From: an uncultured Clostridium sp.
GTDB taxonomy: Bacteria > Bacillota > Clostridia > Christensenellales > CAG-138
Direction: 5' to 3'
DNA length: 64,000 nt
Assembly (NCBI GenBank): GCA_900542285.1
Contig: UQNF01000005.1
Coordinates: 1,185 to 65,184 of the forward strand
Both the position numbers and the translations under genes were made by a program. Positions 57,918 through 64,000 of the stretch are shown piece by piece (position 1 is the first letter of the stretch; every line of letters begins with the position of its first letter). Under the pieces are notes generated by a model, which made no database searches, had not been told where the DNA came from, and saw only the letters and a list, made by a program, of their open reading frames with translations.

Positions 57918-58847
57918 TCAGTCGCTTGCCAAGTCGTTGAAGTCGTTAGCCTGTTCAACTCCGACCCTTGGGCCGACGCGTCCTGCAAGCATGTATTTAT
58001 CCTTTATCGGGTCGTAGAAGAACTGCTTTATCAAGCGCAAGTTTTCTATTGCGCCCGTCGACGGAACATGCGTTCTGGGTCCGGTGCAGGCATGGACCCT
58101 ATCTCCGATCTTGATATGTCCCTCGTCCAAATAGTAGATACCGATATCCTGCTTAATTGCCTCGAGAACATCGGCTTCAAGCTTGTCTATATCAAAATCC
58201 GGCTTTTCCGTAAATTCAAGAACAAATCCGTGTTTGATATCGCCATGATGGCAATTCCTCATGTACTTCTCAGGCAGATATATCTCGCAGAGATCTTCTG
58301 CCGAATGCGCCATACGCCTGTACACGATTGATCTTGCGACCTTTCTGTGTATCTCACCCGGAAGCGGACCAAATATCGTCGGACGGTTAATGATTATTTC
58401 CTCGCCTACCCCGATCAGCAGGTTTGCATTCGTTCCGAGGAACGGGAAAATCATGTCAAAATGCTCAACTATAACACGCTTGCCATTCTTAACAGCACGC
58501 AGTATCGCTTCCGCCAGCGTATGCATCTGGGTGAAAGCGGCCTCAAAGCGAATGTCCACATGATATGTGTGCGCAGTAAAGAAGCCTTCATCGTCCTGAT
58601 CCAACAGCGGAAGCGGACGCATATTCACGCCGTTATCGTCATTGGTCAGTTCAAGCCCCGGAAACATTCCCTTGATCAGCATACTCTTACCCGATCCGGC
58701 TTCACCTATTATGCCGATGAGCTTGTCATACGGGCTCAGATACATCTGCGCTATCTGCATACCAAGATCATAGATCCTATCCCTGCCCCTTGGCGCAAAG
58801 AAGACGCTGTAATAGTGACTGTTCTGCATTTTGCCTGAAAAAGACAT
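57918..58847 (-). CDS. P-loop NTPase fused to a tRNA-SAD/AlaX-like C-terminal segment (hypothetical)
   Basis: Walker A GEAGSGKS near the N-terminus. The C-terminal HHGDIKH and VHACTGPRTHVPSTGAIENL resemble the His/Cys zinc motifs of the Ala/Thr-tRNA synthetase second additional domain. Confidence 0.45.
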   Translation of the reverse strand: MSFSGKMQNSHYYSVFFAPRGRDRIYDLGMQIAQMYLSPYDKLIGIIGEAGSGKSMLIKGMFPGLELTNDDNGVNMRPLPLLDQDDEGFFTAHTYHVDIRFEAAFTQMHTLAEAILRAVKNGKRVIVEHFDMIFPFLGTNANLLIGVGEEIIINRPTIFGPLPGEIHRKVARSIVYRRMAHSAEDLCEIYLPEKYMRNCHHGDIKHGFVLEFTEKPDFDIDKLEADVLEAIKQDIGIYYLDEGHIKIGDRVHACTGPRTHVPSTGAIENLRLIKQFFYDPIKDKYMLAGRVGPRVGVEQANDFNDLASD

Positions 58848-58906
58848 ATTCTTACCAACCTTCTATTATAACAGGGACAGCTATCCCCGATGATTCTTGC
58901 AAATTC

Positions 58907-58935
58907 ATTATAGTATAGCTATCGATTATTTGCAA
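58907..58935 (-). promoter_or_regulatory. SigmaA-type promoter for the P-loop/SAD-like gene
   Basis: Minus strand: TTGCAA, 17 nt, TATAAT. Confidence 0.55.
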
Positions 58936-58964
58936 GCCGCATTTCTTGGTAGGCTCCTGCAGTT

Positions 58965-59726: not shown

Positions 59727-60831
59727 TGATCTCCTCCTTGCAGTACTTCTGCCTTATCAGGTCATGAAACGTCTTTGTAAATGTACAGACATACTCCGGC
59801 GGCTTAGAAAGATTCCCCGTCTCTGCCAATCCGCATGCGGCGCACATCACGCAATCCTTGCGATGAGAACAGCTCATGCACTCAGCGGGAAGTTCAAGTC
59901 CCTTCGCATCGGCTCTGGTCAGTTCCCACGCTTCCTCAAAGCCTCGTTTTTGAACATTATACCCTTCGCATGGAAACATTCCGCACGGAAGTATGCGGCC
60001 ATCCCAAGTTATCCAAAAAGCGGTGCGTCCTGCTCGGCAATGCATGGGTTTGCCCTCGCTTCCTGTGCACTCCTCATGCTCATCGCCTATTCCGTCGATG
60101 GATCTGATAAGCTGTTCCGGACTCATAATCTGTTCGCGACACTCCAGCATGTGCTTAGCCGCATCCTCGGCAGTGAACCTATGCGGCGCAGCTCCGAATT
60201 CGCTGCCCTCTATTCGTACCGGCGGATACATATACGCTGATGCCTGAATGCCCAGCCCCTCACTTCTGGCAAAAGCATGTATGGCTTCTATTTCAGAGAC
60301 GTTGTACGGCGTGATAGATGCGTTTATTCGTATCGGAACGCCGGCTTCATGCAGTCTTCTTATATTTTCTGCAACGACTGAGAACTTTGCATTGCCGCAC
60401 AGCCTTTCATATGCTTCTTCACTTCCGCCATAGAGGGAAATATTGAGTCTGTTTGGAGGGTTCTTGACAAACAGCTCAAACAGCTCATCGTCGATAAGTG
60501 AACCATTGGTATTTACGGATAGAACAAGCCCCATATCCTTCAATCCGCAGTAGATCTTTGGAAAGTCCGAGCGTATCAGAGGCTCTCCTCCGGTGAGAAG
60601 CAAAAACAGCATTCCTTTTTTAACAGCGGCTTCACCTATCTCCAGCCACTCGTCTGCGTTAAGCTCCGGCCTGTTTGTCGGTTGATGAATATAACACATT
60701 TTGCAATTAAAATTGCATCTGGGCGTCAGCTCAAATGTTCCCGAGATGGGCAGGCCGAGCTTTGAGCCTTTGGAGTGCAAGTAAGCAGCCCAATATGGCT
60801 CCCCGTTAATCAGTCTATCGTCAACGATCAT
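59713..60831 (-). CDS. Radical SAM enzyme with C-terminal SPASM domain (peptide-modifying type)
   Basis: CNFNCKMC (CX3CX2C) at residues about 39-46. C-terminal Cys cluster CRAGRTAFWITWDGRILPC ... CMSCSHRKDCVMCAAC fits the SPASM pattern. Confidence 0.9.
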   Translation of the reverse strand: MIVDDRLINGEPYWAAYLHSKGSKLGLPISGTFELTPRCNFNCKMCYIHQPTNRPELNADEWLEIGEAAVKKGMLFLLLTGGEPLIRSDFPKIYCGLKDMGLVLSVNTNGSLIDDELFELFVKNPPNRLNISLYGGSEEAYERLCGNAKFSVVAENIRRLHEAGVPIRINASITPYNVSEIEAIHAFARSEGLGIQASAYMYPPVRIEGSEFGAAPHRFTAEDAAKHMLECREQIMSPEQLIRSIDGIGDEHEECTGSEGKPMHCRAGRTAFWITWDGRILPCGMFPCEGYNVQKRGFEEAWELTRADAKGLELPAECMSCSHRKDCVMCAACGLAETGNLSKPPEYVCTFTKTFHDLIRQKYCKEEINENK

Positions 60832-61583
60832 AGGTACCTCTCCAGGTATTCAACGGTATTTGGGTCTAATTCGCAGTTGAATTCGATGATAGGCACGCTT
60901 GATATGAGCTTGCTCACAAGTTCAACTGTGTTTTTCATCCGATCCTCGCTGGTTCTGTCTATCATTACTTCGCTGAGAATGCGCACAAACGGTTCAACGC
61001 CGCTGACGCGGCGCGCTTGGTTCACCTTGGCCTGTCCAAGCAGTACAACCGCCTTGATCGGAGCGGTAACGTTTTTACAGTAGCCGCTTGAGCCGCTCAA
61101 AAAGCATCCGTTTGCGTAGAAAACAGTATCGCGAAGTGAAACTATCGTTCTGTCGCCGTTGATAATTTCAGCACCGCGCTGTTGTTTCCAAAACTCTGCC
61201 TGTGTACTCTTCCCAGTACCGCTCGGAGCGGAAAAAACTATAGCTTTTCCGTCCGTCAGGACGAACGAGGAATGAAGCACAAACGCACCTTTTTCAGTCA
61301 TCAGTGCAGGAGCATTAGCATCATTCAGTATGCAGAGCGGATACGCTTTCTTCGCGATAGATGGTTTGTACAGCAGCTTGATGGTATTTCCGTCACGAAT
61401 AACATGCTTGTAATCCTCTTCGTGCTCATAGTCTTCCGCTCTTCCTGCGTTCACATCTATAATGAAATCCGGTTCAACATCATGGACCTCGAAGCTGCTG
61501 AACTGTTCGGGTTCAGCCGTCTCCCAAGGCACAACTATTTTGAATACGATCCCTGCGAAGGAGTAAAGCTTATTATGCATCAT
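60828..61583 (-). CDS. HPr-kinase-like P-loop protein (putative peptide/protein kinase)
   Basis: Start at MMHNKLYSF, overlapping the upstream stop. P-loop FSAPSGTGKST followed by GAEIINGDRTIV parallels the HprK C-domain GxSGxGKSE...ADD. ATGA overlap with the radical SAM gene. Confidence 0.5.
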   Translation of the reverse strand: MMHNKLYSFAGIVFKIVVPWETAEPEQFSSFEVHDVEPDFIIDVNAGRAEDYEHEEDYKHVIRDGNTIKLLYKPSIAKKAYPLCILNDANAPALMTEKGAFVLHSSFVLTDGKAIVFSAPSGTGKSTQAEFWKQQRGAEIINGDRTIVSLRDTVFYANGCFLSGSSGYCKNVTAPIKAVVLLGQAKVNQARRVSGVEPFVRILSEVMIDRTSEDRMKNTVELVSKLISSVPIIEFNCELDPNTVEYLERYL

Positions 61584-62301
61584 AGTCAACAAACATAACC
61601 TGACTGTATCTATCGCTGAAATGGGGCGCATATCCCGTATATGTCGCACCGGCGTCAATTCCTCCATCGACTCTGACTCGATAGGTTATTCCGCCAACGA
61701 GTATTCCTGAGTCATAGTTCTTATAATAGACATAGAAGCTGCCGTCAATGCGCTCATCGGTGATGTTCTTTACATAGATTATGTTATCGCTTGCCGTTAT
61801 CTCAAGCATATCCTCATGCCTGCTCGGGGCCTTGTCAAATGCCACATATTGCTCGACAACTCCCGAAATTTTCATCGCCCTGACCGGAGCGGTCTTCCTG
61901 TTGATATCAAAGGCCCGTATAGTAGAATGCGGCGGCACAGTGCTGAGTTCAAAGCAGTACTGTACTCCGTCGCAATACAGGCTAACCTTGGCGTACTGGA
62001 TATACTGCTCCGAATTGTTCACAAATGTGGCAGAAAGGAAATTGCTGACCATATCATTGCTTCCGTCCTCAAAGAACAGACCCGAAACACGCGCAATGTA
62101 CTTGAGCTGTAAGCCATTCGTCAGGCTCAGCACGGAGCCGTTTTCTACAACGACCTGCTCCTCTTCCGGAACGAACGGGACCTCGGTAGGCTCTGGTGTT
62201 GGCTGTTTGTTGCCCGATAGGCCGCTTGCCAGCACTCCTATAAGTGCCAAAAACGCAGCTGCGGAAATAACCGCAATTATAATTCCAATTTTCTTGCTCA
62301 T
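61573..62301 (-). CDS. Single-pass membrane-anchored protein, unknown function
   Basis: 242 aa. N-terminal TM helix (IGIIIAVISAAAFLALIGVLASGL), a Pro/Glu linker and a beta-rich extracytoplasmic domain. Confidence 0.5.
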   Translation of the reverse strand: MSKKIGIIIAVISAAAFLALIGVLASGLSGNKQPTPEPTEVPFVPEEEQVVVENGSVLSLTNGLQLKYIARVSGLFFEDGSNDMVSNFLSATFVNNSEQYIQYAKVSLYCDGVQYCFELSTVPPHSTIRAFDINRKTAPVRAMKISGVVEQYVAFDKAPSRHEDMLEITASDNIIYVKNITDERIDGSFYVYYKNYDSGILVGGITYRVRVDGGIDAGATYTGYAPHFSDRYSQVMFVDYDA

Positions 62302-62313
62302 ATTAGGAATTTC

Positions 62314-62332
62314 CCCCGCCGTTTAAGCGGGG
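62314..62332 (-). promoter_or_regulatory. GC hairpin between the small ORF and downstream operon genes
   Basis: Minus strand: CCCCGC-TTAAACG-GCGGGG. The 3' arm overlaps the purine-rich RBS of the next gene. Confidence 0.45.
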
Positions 62333-62351: not shown

Positions 62352-62591
62352 TTAGGAATGGAAAATCCTTGATCCAGCAATGGGAACATGATAGCAGAAT
62401 TCGCTTTCATCACCATTCTGCGGAGTGACCGAGCATTTATCTAACGATAGGAAAAGAAGAAATCCGCCTCCCAAGTCGTATGTGCAGGTTGAAGCACTGC
62501 CAAAGTTAGTGCTTACAGTTAACGAACAGTCCCCGGCCGCTTTTACGCCAAAATTCACGAAAGCAATTTCAGGCTTCGAATAATTCTTCAT
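62352..62591 (-). CDS. 79-aa Cys-containing small protein (candidate RiPP precursor)
   Basis: ATG preceded by GGAGGT at 5-nt spacing. Four Cys, no signal peptide, C-terminal Ser. It is the first gene of the radical SAM operon. Confidence 0.5.
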   Translation of the reverse strand: MKNYSKPEIAFVNFGVKAAGDCSLTVSTNFGSASTCTYDLGGGFLLFLSLDKCSVTPQNGDESEFCYHVPIAGSRIFHS

Positions 62592-62665
62592 TGGTTACCT
62601 CCAAATAATCGAGTAAGTACCGGGATGGGTGTTGCCCACCCCATTTTATCAGAGCATGAAACCGC

Positions 62666-64000
62666 TCAGTCAGCTCCAAGCACATGGCGCATCAGGACGA
62701 GAGCGTCATACGAGCTGACGGTTCCGTCGCCGTTAAAGTCAGCCGCCTTGAGCTTCGAGCCCTTGAGCTCTACCAATCCGAGGGCATAACGCATTACGAG
62801 AAGAGCATCAAATGTGTTGACATTACCATCTCCGTTTACATCGCCAATGGTATAGTCGCCATAGAGATAATCGAGATGCTCGACCGCAGCCTCAATGCCC
62901 CTGACATCGCAGCAGGCAACGATGGAATTTTCGTTCTCCTGAAGCAGCGCGTTCGGATCGGCGGAAGAATCGGTAGTGGTTACAAATTTAACGCCGTCAT
63001 TCGATGTCACCTTGATATTGGTAATCGAAATGACACTGCTCGTTCCCTTAGTCGCAGGATTGCTGAACATCAGATCTGAAGATACATAGTACGTCTTTTC
63101 GTTAATAGTTGTCGTTGACCATGAAATATTCTTCAGCTCATAGTACATATCGGCAGTCGTTGATAGATCGTTGACCAGAGTTAATTCGATCCAAGGATCT
63201 GTTACATAAGTCGATACATTCTTCTGCGACAGTACCAGCTTTCCGGGATTACCAAATGCAAGCTTTGTACCAATCATGAATCGAGCGTTGCTCGGATCCT
63301 TATCGGTCATGAGCCTGAAATAGACTCCTTGTCCGGGTGTGAGATAGATCTCATTGTTGGGGCTGGGATTCAGGTAATTGAATGAATAGCCTTCTGCAGG
63401 AGCAGTTACTTCGCCCATACCGTCGATAAATATCGCTCCTGTAAAGGTATATGTCGTTCCATTCTGAACACCGCTTCTGCTGAAAACGAAGTCCCTAAAA
63501 CGCACGAAGTCAGGATTTGCTTCACCATCGCTCTTGTATGCAGCTTCTGCCGTCGCATCTCCCTTTGCAGGGTCGTAAATGCGTATCGCATCGAGGTAAA
63601 CGGTGTAGCTGTCACTTCCGGTATGATTAAAGCTACTGTTATAGATTACCTTTATCGTTACGGTGTATTCGCCATAAGCGAGATCGGAAACCTTTATGAC
63701 GGGTACCTGCCAGACACCCGGCGTGCCCTCAGAGGGTACCGCAGTCCAGATACCGTTATTATATGTATAGCCATAATAAGTATCAACGATCAGGCTCTTT
63801 ACAAGCCCTCCACTGCTGTTCTCGACCTGAACGATCATAAGTCCGCTTGTGGAGTCGGTCTTGGAAATAACATCAAAGCCGGTTCCCTTGAAGGTAAAGC
63901 TTGCGGAAGGCGGGTTACTGCTATCTGTATCTGCATTAACCGTTACCTTATGATAGCCGTTCATGCTGAAGGCAAGCTCATCATCGTATATCGGATCATA
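62666..64000 (-). CDS. Dockerin-containing extracellular protein (5' end outside the window)
   Basis: The C-terminus has two calcium-binding dockerin repeats (DVNGDGNVNTFDALLVMR; DFNGDGTVSSYDALVLMR). The upstream part has beta-rich CBM/Ig-like modules. The frame stays open to position 64000. Confidence 0.8.
   Translation of the reverse strand, partial: YDPIYDDELAFSMNGYHKVTVNADTDSSNPPSASFTFKGTGFDVISKTDSTSGLMIVQVENSSGGLVKSLIVDTYYGYTYNNGIWTAVPSEGTPGVWQVPVIKVSDLAYGEYTVTIKVIYNSSFNHTGSDSYTVYLDAIRIYDPAKGDATAEAAYKSDGEANPDFVRFRDFVFSRSGVQNGTTYTFTGAIFIDGMGEVTAPAEGYSFNYLNPSPNNEIYLTPGQGVYFRLMTDKDPSNARFMIGTKLAFGNPGKLVLSQKNVSTYVTDPWIELTLVNDLSTTADMYYELKNISWSTTTINEKTYYVSSDLMFSNPATKGTSSVISITNIKVTSNDGVKFVTTTDSSADPNALLQENENSIVACCDVRGIEAAVEHLDYLYGDYTIGDVNGDGNVNTFDALLVMRYALGLVELKGSKLKAADFNGDGTVSSYDALVLMRHVLGAD

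Follow-up and report, generated by a model that had tools for sequence, protein, structure and literature searches.

The small gene analysed here lies within a window of 64,000 nucleotides, by which we mean the whole stretch of DNA that was examined. It is situated between the 3' end of a very large surface-protein gene and a cassette of further genes (Table 1). The order of the genes that follow the small ORF in 3' direction is anchored Ig-like protein, HprK-like (ScmC-type) P-loop protein, radical SAM/SPASM enzyme and PqqD-family RRE, all encoded on the minus strand. A GNAT gene comes after the PqqD gene in the window and was not conserved elsewhere. No second member of the small-protein family was found in the window.

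The original prediction had described the ORF as encoding a protein of 79 aa with a near-ideal ribosome binding site (GGAGGT, 5 nt) and with neither signal peptide nor TM helix, and this description was confirmed from the sequence. The 79-aa protein has no N-terminal hydrophobic stretch, signal peptide or TM helix, its longest apolar run (FLLFL) being too short for a TM helix. Potential RNA hairpins flank the small ORF on both sides. The one directly 3' of it lacks a U-tract and is therefore not a canonical terminator. No convincing promoter was found between the giant gene and the small ORF.

Table 1. Features at the small ORF and its neighbouring genes in the window.
Feature	Position	Strand	Remarks
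Giant secreted surface-protein gene, 3' end	62666..64000	minus	runs off the window; frame open to 64000
GC-rich 8-bp hairpin without U-tract, between the giant-gene stop codon and the small-ORF RBS	62622..62642	minus	RNA fold of 62592..62668: -27 kcal/mol, z = -2.75
Shine-Dalgarno sequence GGAGGT	62597..62602	minus	5 nt before ATG; read off the sequence
Small ORF	62352..62591	minus	79-aa translation exactly as quoted in the original prediction
Codons 1-21 of the small ORF, putative leader / RRE-recognition segment MKNYSKPEIAFVNFGVKAAGD	62529..62591	minus	Y4-x-x-P7-x-I9, F11, F14
Codons 22-79 and stop codon, putative core	62352..62528	minus	C22, C36, C53, C66-Y67-H68-V69-P70, F77, terminal S79
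7-bp GC hairpin directly 3' of the small ORF	62314..62332	minus	overlaps the purine-rich RBS region of the next gene; RNA fold: -15.2 kcal/mol, z = -1.7
Protein with N-terminal membrane anchor and extracytoplasmic beta-rich (Ig-like) domain, 242 aa	61573..62301	minus	conserved in most loci, where it separates the small ORF from the kinase-like gene
HprK-like / ScmC-type P-loop protein	60828..61667	minus	longest ORF 279 aa
Radical SAM/SPASM enzyme, 372 aa	59713..60831	minus	CNFNCKMC cluster motif and C-terminal Cys-rich SPASM region
Discrete PqqD-family RRE, 89 aa	59457..59726	minus	Pfam PqqD 1.4e-15

A family of small proteins with conserved cysteines and a terminal serine

The 79-codon ORF is a real gene that belongs to a conserved family. 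A word-indexed protein search retrieved relatives only from the same species (at least 86% identity), with the five-gene cassette kept on all of their contigs. The exact window protein is carried by 681 contigs. Exhaustive HMMER screening of 1.84 billion cluster representatives yielded 55 matches at E <= 1e-3. The large proteins among these (P0012, P0014, P0022, P0043 and P0060) looked like tandem-domain homologues and were discarded as low-complexity, Big-like or TPR repeats. The remaining 50 matches were full-length proteins of 77-100 aa, each representing a 50%-identity cluster. In their alignment Y4, P7, C22, C36, C53 and C66 were invariant, and K6, F14, A19, F47, Y67, P70, F77 and S79 were each at least 90% conserved (for example K6 and A19 in 45/50, F14 in 47/50 and the terminal Ser in 49/50).

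In addition, one genome per species (GTDB) was scanned with a degenerate nucleotide pattern that encodes M[KR]xxYxKPx[ILVMF]xF[ED]xF. At least 120 stretches matched, and at least 107 of these encoded family members (65-100 aa with at least three Cys) in species-representative genomes. Because the pattern fixes N-terminal positions, conservation of Y4, K6, P7, F11 and F14 was taken only from the unbiased HMMER set. The original prediction had proposed the N-terminus as a recognition element; this could be sharpened to the motif Y4-x-x-P7-x-[I/L/V]9, with Tyr and Pro each present in 50/50 sequences of that set. The positions from C22 to S79 are not constrained by the pattern. Among 156 non-identical members listed, C22 was conserved in 155, C36 in 155, C53 in 154, C66 in 151, Y67 in 151, P70 in 130 and F77 in 147, and Ser was the last residue in 154 (about 98%). 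The 107 scan members listed ended with Ser in 102 cases and with F-x-S in 98. The family is thus recognizable by Y-x-x-P-x-[I/L/V] near the N-terminus and F-x-Ser at the very end, with four cysteines and a C-Y-[H/D]-V-P box in between.

Full-length homologues (74-94 aa) were present in more than 100 genomes at species level, and conservation among them depended strongly on position, at 30-45% identity. Nearly all hosts were Clostridia (Oscillospiraceae, Ruminococcus, Acutalibacteraceae and others), represented by MAGs from the guts of humans, ruminants, horses and chickens, and cultured carriers included Pseudoflavonifractor capillosus ATCC 29799 (BACCAP_00196) and P. intestinihominis (strain CLA-AP-H29). 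In NCBI and UniRef, members are labelled 'hypothetical protein' (e.g. WP_006570761.1 of Pseudoflavonifractor capillosus ATCC 29799), and neither Pfam nor NCBIfam held a model matching the family. The small size and the lack of a Pfam or NCBIfam match could suggest a chance ORF that is not translated. The probability of this is negligible in our view, given the strong RBS, gene calls deposited in NCBI and UniRef and more than 150 distinct homologues with position-specific amino-acid conservation at 30-45% identity; the conservation of the family effectively refutes it.

The window protein contains four cysteines, the motifs CSLT, CTYD, CSVT and DLGGG, and Ser as its last residue. Three of the four cysteines are thus followed by Thr or Asp at position +3, as had been pointed out before in support of a donor-acceptor spacing for thioether formation. 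This holds for the window protein itself, but not for the family, in which Thr or Asp at Cys+3 was found in 15%, 31%, 24% and 6% of the 156 members listed for the four cysteines, against a background of 13%, and at three or more cysteines in only 5/156. At the family level the spacing was therefore not above chance; alignment bore out the conservation of the four cysteines and the terminal Ser, but not that of the Thr/Asp at +3. The GGG tract had likewise been regarded as a possible boundary between leader and core. It lies between C36 and C53 in a beta-hairpin turn predicted by AF2 (G43 being conserved in 118/156 members listed), and because two invariant cysteines are located N-terminal to it, it does not mark such a boundary. 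If there is a boundary, it would lie directly before C22, where the family shows [AG][GDSN]. A lipoprotein signal (…IA[AG][GD]C) at this site was considered and rejected, as the preceding segment has conserved charged residues and lacks a hydrophobic core.

AF2 did not predict an autonomous fold of the small protein with confidence (pLDDT 56, pTM 0.26), the block with the highest pLDDT being residues 1-21 (73). This is as expected for a chain that might need modification or a partner. With four invariant cysteines in about 80 aa and anaerobes as hosts, it could also be imagined that the cysteines bind a metal or an Fe-S centre and that the small protein is a redox or metal accessory, e.g. an electron donor for the radical SAM enzyme. 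We consider this very improbable. CxxC pairs are absent, the four cysteines being spaced by 14, 17 and 13 residues, the AF2 model shows no fold that gathers them, and Pfam or NCBIfam matches are lacking. The cassette is, moreover, kept by members with one or three cysteines, and metal binding would leave the lasso-type leader motif and the terminal Ser unexplained. Variants with one or three cysteines include L086, L130, L049 and L087, of which L086 and L130 have one. Because one- and three-Cys variants still adjoin the cassette, four cross-links cannot be universal.

Pairing with giant surface-protein genes

Within the window, the giant gene codes for two modules of the jelly-roll beta-sandwich type, followed by a type I dockerin (Pfam Dockerin_1) at the C-terminus. 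In a contig of the same species (L001) the full protein has 1928 aa with a signal peptide, a VWA domain (Pfam VWA_2) and a C-terminal dockerin. The original prediction had missed the pairing with this gene, which lies immediately upstream of the small ORF. A very large gene ends 4-18 nt before the small one in the distant homologues that were inspected first, and its products share homology among themselves and with the dockerin protein of the window (40% identity over 731 aa between L001 and locus L017). A homologous giant ORF ended within 1.5 kb 5' of the small gene in 69 of 75 listed loci with at least 1.5 kb upstream. The distance between the giant stop codon and the ATG of the small ORF was 10-30 nt in most listed loci, whereas it amounts to 74 nt, including the hairpin, in the window, and many of the giant ORFs exceed 1000-2600 aa.

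A region homologous to residues 1-332 of the window fragment was present in 65 of 68 listed giant proteins with at least 750 aa available. For this conserved region AF2 predicted two jelly-roll beta-sandwiches (pLDDT 76), with generic, CBM-like fold matches in the PDB at low TM-scores, and neither Pfam nor the PDB gave a sequence match. The C-termini of the giant proteins vary between a dockerin, a TM anchor and, most often, an amphipathic tail of about 20 aa. The idea that the small gene confers immunity to a polymorphic toxin was considered and rejected, as the small proteins belong to a single conserved family carrying an RRE motif and the giant proteins end in anchors (a dockerin, an amphipathic tail or a TM segment) instead of toxin domains.

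Pairs of giant and small genes occurred several times per genome as paralogues in several genomes. The original prediction had asked whether homologues are always located 5' of SPASM maturases. Among 54 listed loci with at least 3.3 kb downstream, a radical SAM gene was found in 37 and a ScmC-like gene in 40, so that the association holds for the larger part of the loci but is not universal. The radical SAM gene was absent nearby from the other 17, i.e. about a third of the giant and small gene pairs, and at 14 of these 17 the ScmC-like gene was absent as well. The pairs without a nearby cassette, together with the multiple paralogous pairs per genome, indicate that the giant and the small gene together form the fundamental unit, several of which may share a single cassette. 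The systematic pairing of the small gene with giant surface-protein genes appears to be new.

Enzymes of the downstream cassette

The ScmC-like protein, the radical SAM enzyme and the PqqD protein are encoded 3' of the small ORF in contigs of the same species and also in relatives of 35-45% identity. Within the cassette, the gene of the anchored protein is usually the first and that of the PqqD protein the last. By tblastn the anchored protein was detected in most loci that carry the cassette, and complete ORFs were obtained from 55 loci. The 242-aa window protein gave no significant Pfam or NCBIfam match and no PDB relative beyond its TM segment. Some members have lipobox-like signals, and 3 of 9 showed weak matches to the Lamin Tail Domain (best E 1e-4).

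The HprK-like protein of the window showed weak NCBIfam matches to ScmC, HprK_rel_A and HprK_rel_B, and its homologues carry the precomputed Pfam assignment PF27840 ScmC. Relatives called at about 251 aa suggest that its true start lies near position 61583. With the family profile, the best PDB match was HPr kinase/phosphorylase 1jb1 (E 0.024), aligned across the His, the P-loop and the Asp. H132, G152-K153-S154-T155 and D172 are invariant in the family, and the P-loop reads [GA]xSGxGKSTQAxLW in most loci. The similarity to HprK is nevertheless weak and remote, and the kinase activity is putative. HprK-like kinases encoded in RiPP clusters phosphorylate Ser residues of the precursor, in paeninodin the C-terminal Ser (PMC9266682) and in LPP clusters Ser3 of the core (PMC13381572). 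The link that had been drawn between the terminal Ser and a HprK homologue gained support, since Ser is the last residue in 49/50 and 154/156 sequences and co-occurs with the HprK-like P-loop protein.

The radical SAM enzyme matched Pfam Radical_SAM (3e-27) and SPASM (1.6e-3). Its invariant cysteines, C39/C43/C46 (CxxxCxxC), C255, C265, C283, C318, C321, C327, C330 and C349, make up a full SPASM-type set. The best solved relatives were SkfB (a thioether synthase and the closest), PqqE, SuiB and anSME. All curated NCBIfam maturase models (StsB, SkfB, AlbA, PapB, ScmE/F, GeoRSP) remained far under their cut-offs for the window enzyme, and it therefore represents a distinct clade.

For the PqqD protein, the best NCBIfam matches were lasso PqqD chaperones and the nearest solved relatives were the lasso RREs TbiB1 (E 2e-4) and TfuB1. 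Discrete RREs of the lasso type bind a [Y/W]xxPx[L/V/I/F/A] motif (PMC13381572), which is matched by Y4-x-x-P7-x-[I/L/V]9 of the small protein. Together with the recurrence of the gene order in distant relatives, this supports the earlier idea that the small ORF encodes a precursor on which the products of the neighbouring PqqD, radical SAM/SPASM and HprK-like genes are likely to act.

With the radical SAM profile, anSME was aligned over its full length (E 1e-10), and the giant gene is the most constant neighbour of the small one. Both observations would fit a situation in which the giant protein, alone or as well, is the real radical SAM substrate and is modified before Sec export like the targets of anSME, the small protein serving as adaptor, chaperone or regulator. 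We regard this as improbable, since it is the small protein that has the RRE-type motif YxxPx[ILV] at its N-terminus and to which the invariant cysteines and the terminal Ser belong.

No protease or exporter gene was found between the small ORF and the PqqD gene, the one extra gene in this interval being that of the anchored Ig-like protein. Comparison of 65 downstream ORFs, from loci with at least 1.5 kb beyond PqqD, also revealed no conserved gene after PqqD, including any protease, ABC transporter or immunity gene. This bears on whether the locus encodes an ordinary secreted RiPP, i.e. a large sactipeptide- or ranthipeptide-like bacteriocin, whose leader would be removed and whose core would be exported by housekeeping or distant genes, and for which the adjacency to the giant gene would reflect shared transcription or regulation only. 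The locus indeed combines conserved cysteines and a leader-like N-terminus with genes for an RRE and for a radical SAM/SPASM enzyme, the residues before C22 loosely recall cleavage sites of the double-glycine type, and hairpins lie on both sides of the small ORF as in many RiPP operons. We nevertheless consider this explanation unlikely. Besides the lack of conserved processing, transport and immunity genes, the pairing with the giant gene extends across families with a typically short gap and persists where no cassette is nearby, and the whole 58-aa 'core' is conserved together with its exact C-terminus, which is unusual for bacteriocin cores. That the 79 aa might be a small protein substrate instead had already been raised, and it agrees with the conservation of the whole length and with the lack of a conserved protease or exporter in the cluster.

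Proposed function and comparison with known systems

With moderate confidence, we propose that the product of the 79-aa ORF is guided by the RRE to the radical SAM enzyme and the kinase-like protein, for which it serves as substrate, and that it is functionally tied to the giant adhesin-like proteins. The observations from which this proposal starts are the gene family, its conserved residues, the gene order and the homologies. From these we infer RRE binding, the chemistry, the site of phosphorylation and the partnership with the giant protein. The N-terminal approximately 20 residues with Y-x-x-P-x-[I/L/V] would be bound by the discrete PqqD-type RRE, which would then present the remaining chain to the radical SAM/SPASM enzyme. 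The invariant cysteines and the SPASM enzyme make thioether cross-linking of the conserved cysteines the most likely reaction. No conserved acceptor spacing was found at +1 to +5. The RRE would also present the chain to the HprK-like P-loop protein, most likely for Ser phosphorylation with the near-invariant C-terminal Ser as the best candidate. The product may remain uncleaved, given that neither a leader protease nor an exporter is conserved.

In this proposal the small gene is, further, translationally linked to the gene of a giant secreted surface protein with VWA, jelly-roll and dockerin modules. Conservation of the pairing makes it probable that the modified small protein serves the giant protein as a dedicated partner, be it a subunit, a ligand or an assembly factor. 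The extracytoplasmic anchored protein encoded in the cassette was also counted in favour of such a partnership. On the other side, the small protein has neither a signal peptide nor a conserved exporter, and no evident route by which to meet a Sec-exported giant protein. The gap of 74 nt with a hairpin in the window and the 17 of 54 listed loci without a radical SAM gene nearby likewise argue against the proposal.

The components are of known kinds, and the small-protein family is unnamed. Searches for literature on HprK with radical SAM and PqqD, on SynChlorMet or on ScmC returned nothing relevant. Neither a paper on the small-protein family nor any account of a lasso-type leader and RRE combined with both a radical SAM/SPASM enzyme and a HprK-like protein turned up in the literature searched. 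Three elements that are known separately, the lasso-type YxxP leader with its RRE, the radical SAM/SPASM enzyme and the HprK-like kinase, are joined here and tied to giant VWA, carbohydrate-binding-like and dockerin proteins. It is conceivable, although we put this forward only tentatively, that a widespread system of gut Oscillospiraceae and other Clostridia provides each giant Sec-exported adhesin-like protein with its own partner of about 80 aa, which is cross-linked by the radical SAM/SPASM enzyme, phosphorylated by the HprK-like protein and guided by the lasso-type RRE. Maturation in the manner of RiPPs would then yield a structural or functional subunit of cell-surface megaproteins and not a free natural product. 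If the small protein is such a modified partner, the scope of RiPP-type chemistry would widen to include adhesion or the assembly of cell surfaces among gut microbes, and genome miners would gain a new, class-defining precursor motif. Well over 100 species-level genomes contain the family, from Clostridia that are abundant in the guts of humans and livestock, and because the cultured type strain Pseudoflavonifractor capillosus ATCC 29799 carries the system, the idea is directly testable.

Among known systems, the precursors of paeninodin-type lasso peptides (PadeA/PadeK, ThcoK) share with the small protein the N-terminal [Y/W]xxPx[L/I/V] leader motif and the discrete PqqD-type (B1-type) RRE. 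Their clusters also contain a gene for a HprK-like kinase, and the precursors end with a highly conserved Ser (PMC9266682), the phosphorylation being a prediction in the present case. In contrast, the macrolactam cyclase (C, asparagine-synthetase-like) and the B2 cysteine protease are absent from the cluster proteins and related loci studied here. A radical SAM/SPASM enzyme is present instead, the substrate of about 80 aa has four invariant cysteines, and a transporter is absent.

The systems for linear polyphosphorylated peptides (LPP; LppA/LppB/LppK; Popov et al. 2026, PMC13381572) likewise belong to Bacillota and combine a discrete RRE with a HprK-like kinase, and their clusters are embedded in cell-surface polymer loci (PMC13381572). 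LPP precursors (35-200 aa) are of comparable length and have a conserved N-terminus that starts with YxxPx[V/I/L] and includes an F-E-[T/S] element. The spacing differs, however, with YxxPxVLxHQxIxFETxxS in LPP and YxKPxIxFE[S/D]FxLS in the family described here, and the C-terminus, which is variable in LPP, is the most conserved part here. The SpI-like leader peptidase, the NTP-transferase and the MsbA-like exporter of LPP are absent, so that only the RRE and the HprK-like protein are shared.

As in the case of sactipeptide and ranthipeptide precursors (SkfA, subtilosin, SCIFF, PapA), an RRE-dependent radical SAM enzyme is encoded beside a Cys-containing precursor, with SkfB as the closest solved relative. 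The maturases of these classes (PapB, StsB, SkfB, AlbA, SCIFF maturase) reached best scores of only 44-73 bits against cut-offs of 300-850. Ranthipeptides and sactipeptides have Cys donors with conserved acceptor positions, such as CxxxD in PapA or a hairpin register in sactipeptides. The four cysteines of the small protein are invariant, and no conserved acceptor was found for them at +1 to +5, the comparison covering these short-range positions. They are spread over 45 residues of a longer substrate, whose gene is accompanied by a giant gene but by neither a protease nor an exporter gene.

SynChlorMet (ScmC, ScmE, ScmF) and GeoRSP, as defined in NCBIfam, resemble the cassette in that a HprK-like ScmC-type protein, a radical SAM/SPASM enzyme and a PqqD-family protein occur together. 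The scores were far from the cut-offs (ScmC 20 bits vs 125, ScmE 70 vs 400, ScmF 47 vs 400, GeoRSP radical SAM 75 vs 400), one radical SAM enzyme is encoded here instead of two, and both taxa and precursor differ. In the more general terms of RRE-dependent RiPP-type precursors, PqqD and Radical_SAM are encoded in the same operon as a protein with invariant Y4 and P7, and the gene order is conserved in distant relatives. Genes for a leader protease and for export of the core were not found at conserved positions in the loci compared.

A different kind of comparison is offered by QhpC, the gamma subunit of quinohemoprotein amine dehydrogenase, which is small (about 80 aa when mature) and has four cysteines. 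No sequence similarity between QhpC and the small protein was detected. QhpC systems are proteobacterial, have a dedicated protease and an ABC exporter, and contain redox partner subunits rather than adhesin-like giant proteins. QhpC is cross-linked in the cytoplasm by the radical SAM/SPASM maturase QhpD and then becomes a subunit of a much larger extracytoplasmic protein that is encoded beside it. The small protein described here, as a probable dedicated partner of the giant surface proteins, would follow a similar logic.

Variant precursors and giant-protein C-termini

The small ORFs at two loci of the family, L086 and L130 (MKKVYQKPEIEFENF…WCYFTAYVPS), encoded precursors with a single Cys, in which the leader was unchanged and the terminal Ser was kept. 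These single-Cys variants still adjoined ScmC-like and rSAM genes. Three tandem precursors were found at a further locus (see table), and two of the three were without the C-Y box.

Inspection by eye of the C-terminal ends of 68 giant surface proteins encoded upstream of family members showed an amphipathic tail of about 20 aa with an aromatic end in roughly 35-40 of them, and a strict pattern for this tail gave 21 matches. Such ends (…KSLLGWLFK, …FKKLFGFLK, …IFGRWF) were seen within the C-terminal 20-25 aa; the giant proteins of L029, L045, L073 and L110 are examples. Others had a dockerin at the C-terminus, or else a TM anchor. The amphipathic tail may be a so far unrecognised signal at the C-terminus that serves in anchoring or sorting. 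A "432-aa dockerin protein" called on the same-species contig L005 (1..3168), and likewise the cluster representative P0065, was rejected as an artefact of a scaffold gap (run of N) at this gene; the gene actually encodes the giant protein of 1928 aa that L001 also carries.

Genes downstream of the GNAT gene

In the same-species contigs L001-L006 a GmrSD gene was placed between the GNAT gene and a gene encoding 303-309 aa, while the window held only about 117 nt at this site (58848..58964). Presence or absence of this defence gene differs at strain level. The 303-309-aa gene was kept in the window as the 309-aa protein, for which no match was found in Pfam or NCBIfam.

Features of the window and of related loci
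Feature	Sequence	Coordinates	Strand	Remarks
Three tandem precursors	L049	5691..7300		Contig labelled Selenomonadaceae; C-termini NSL
309-aa protein	Window	57918..58847	-	Downstream of GNAT gene; P-loop-like GEAGSGKS motif
GmrSD_N/GmrSD_C gene	L001	12349..14442		Type IV restriction-like, 697 aa; same gene in L002-L006
Kinase-like gene	Window	60828..61667		Longest ORF
Anchored protein	Window	61573..62301		Member of alignment A6

Anchored protein and start of the kinase-like gene

Genes of the anchored-protein family follow the small ORF and precede the kinase-like gene, and some members of the family carried lipobox-like signals (LLSGCG, LSACS). Apart from weak matches to the Lamin Tail Domain in three of nine members, no family assignment was obtained. 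Read as its longest ORF, the kinase-like gene overlapped the preceding gene, that of the anchored protein, by 95 nt. Since gene calls for the kinase-like protein in relatives were 250-253 aa long, a later start near 61583 is indicated in the window, which would leave a predicted overlap of roughly 10-20 nt. Overlaps of this size between genes are typical of coupled translation.
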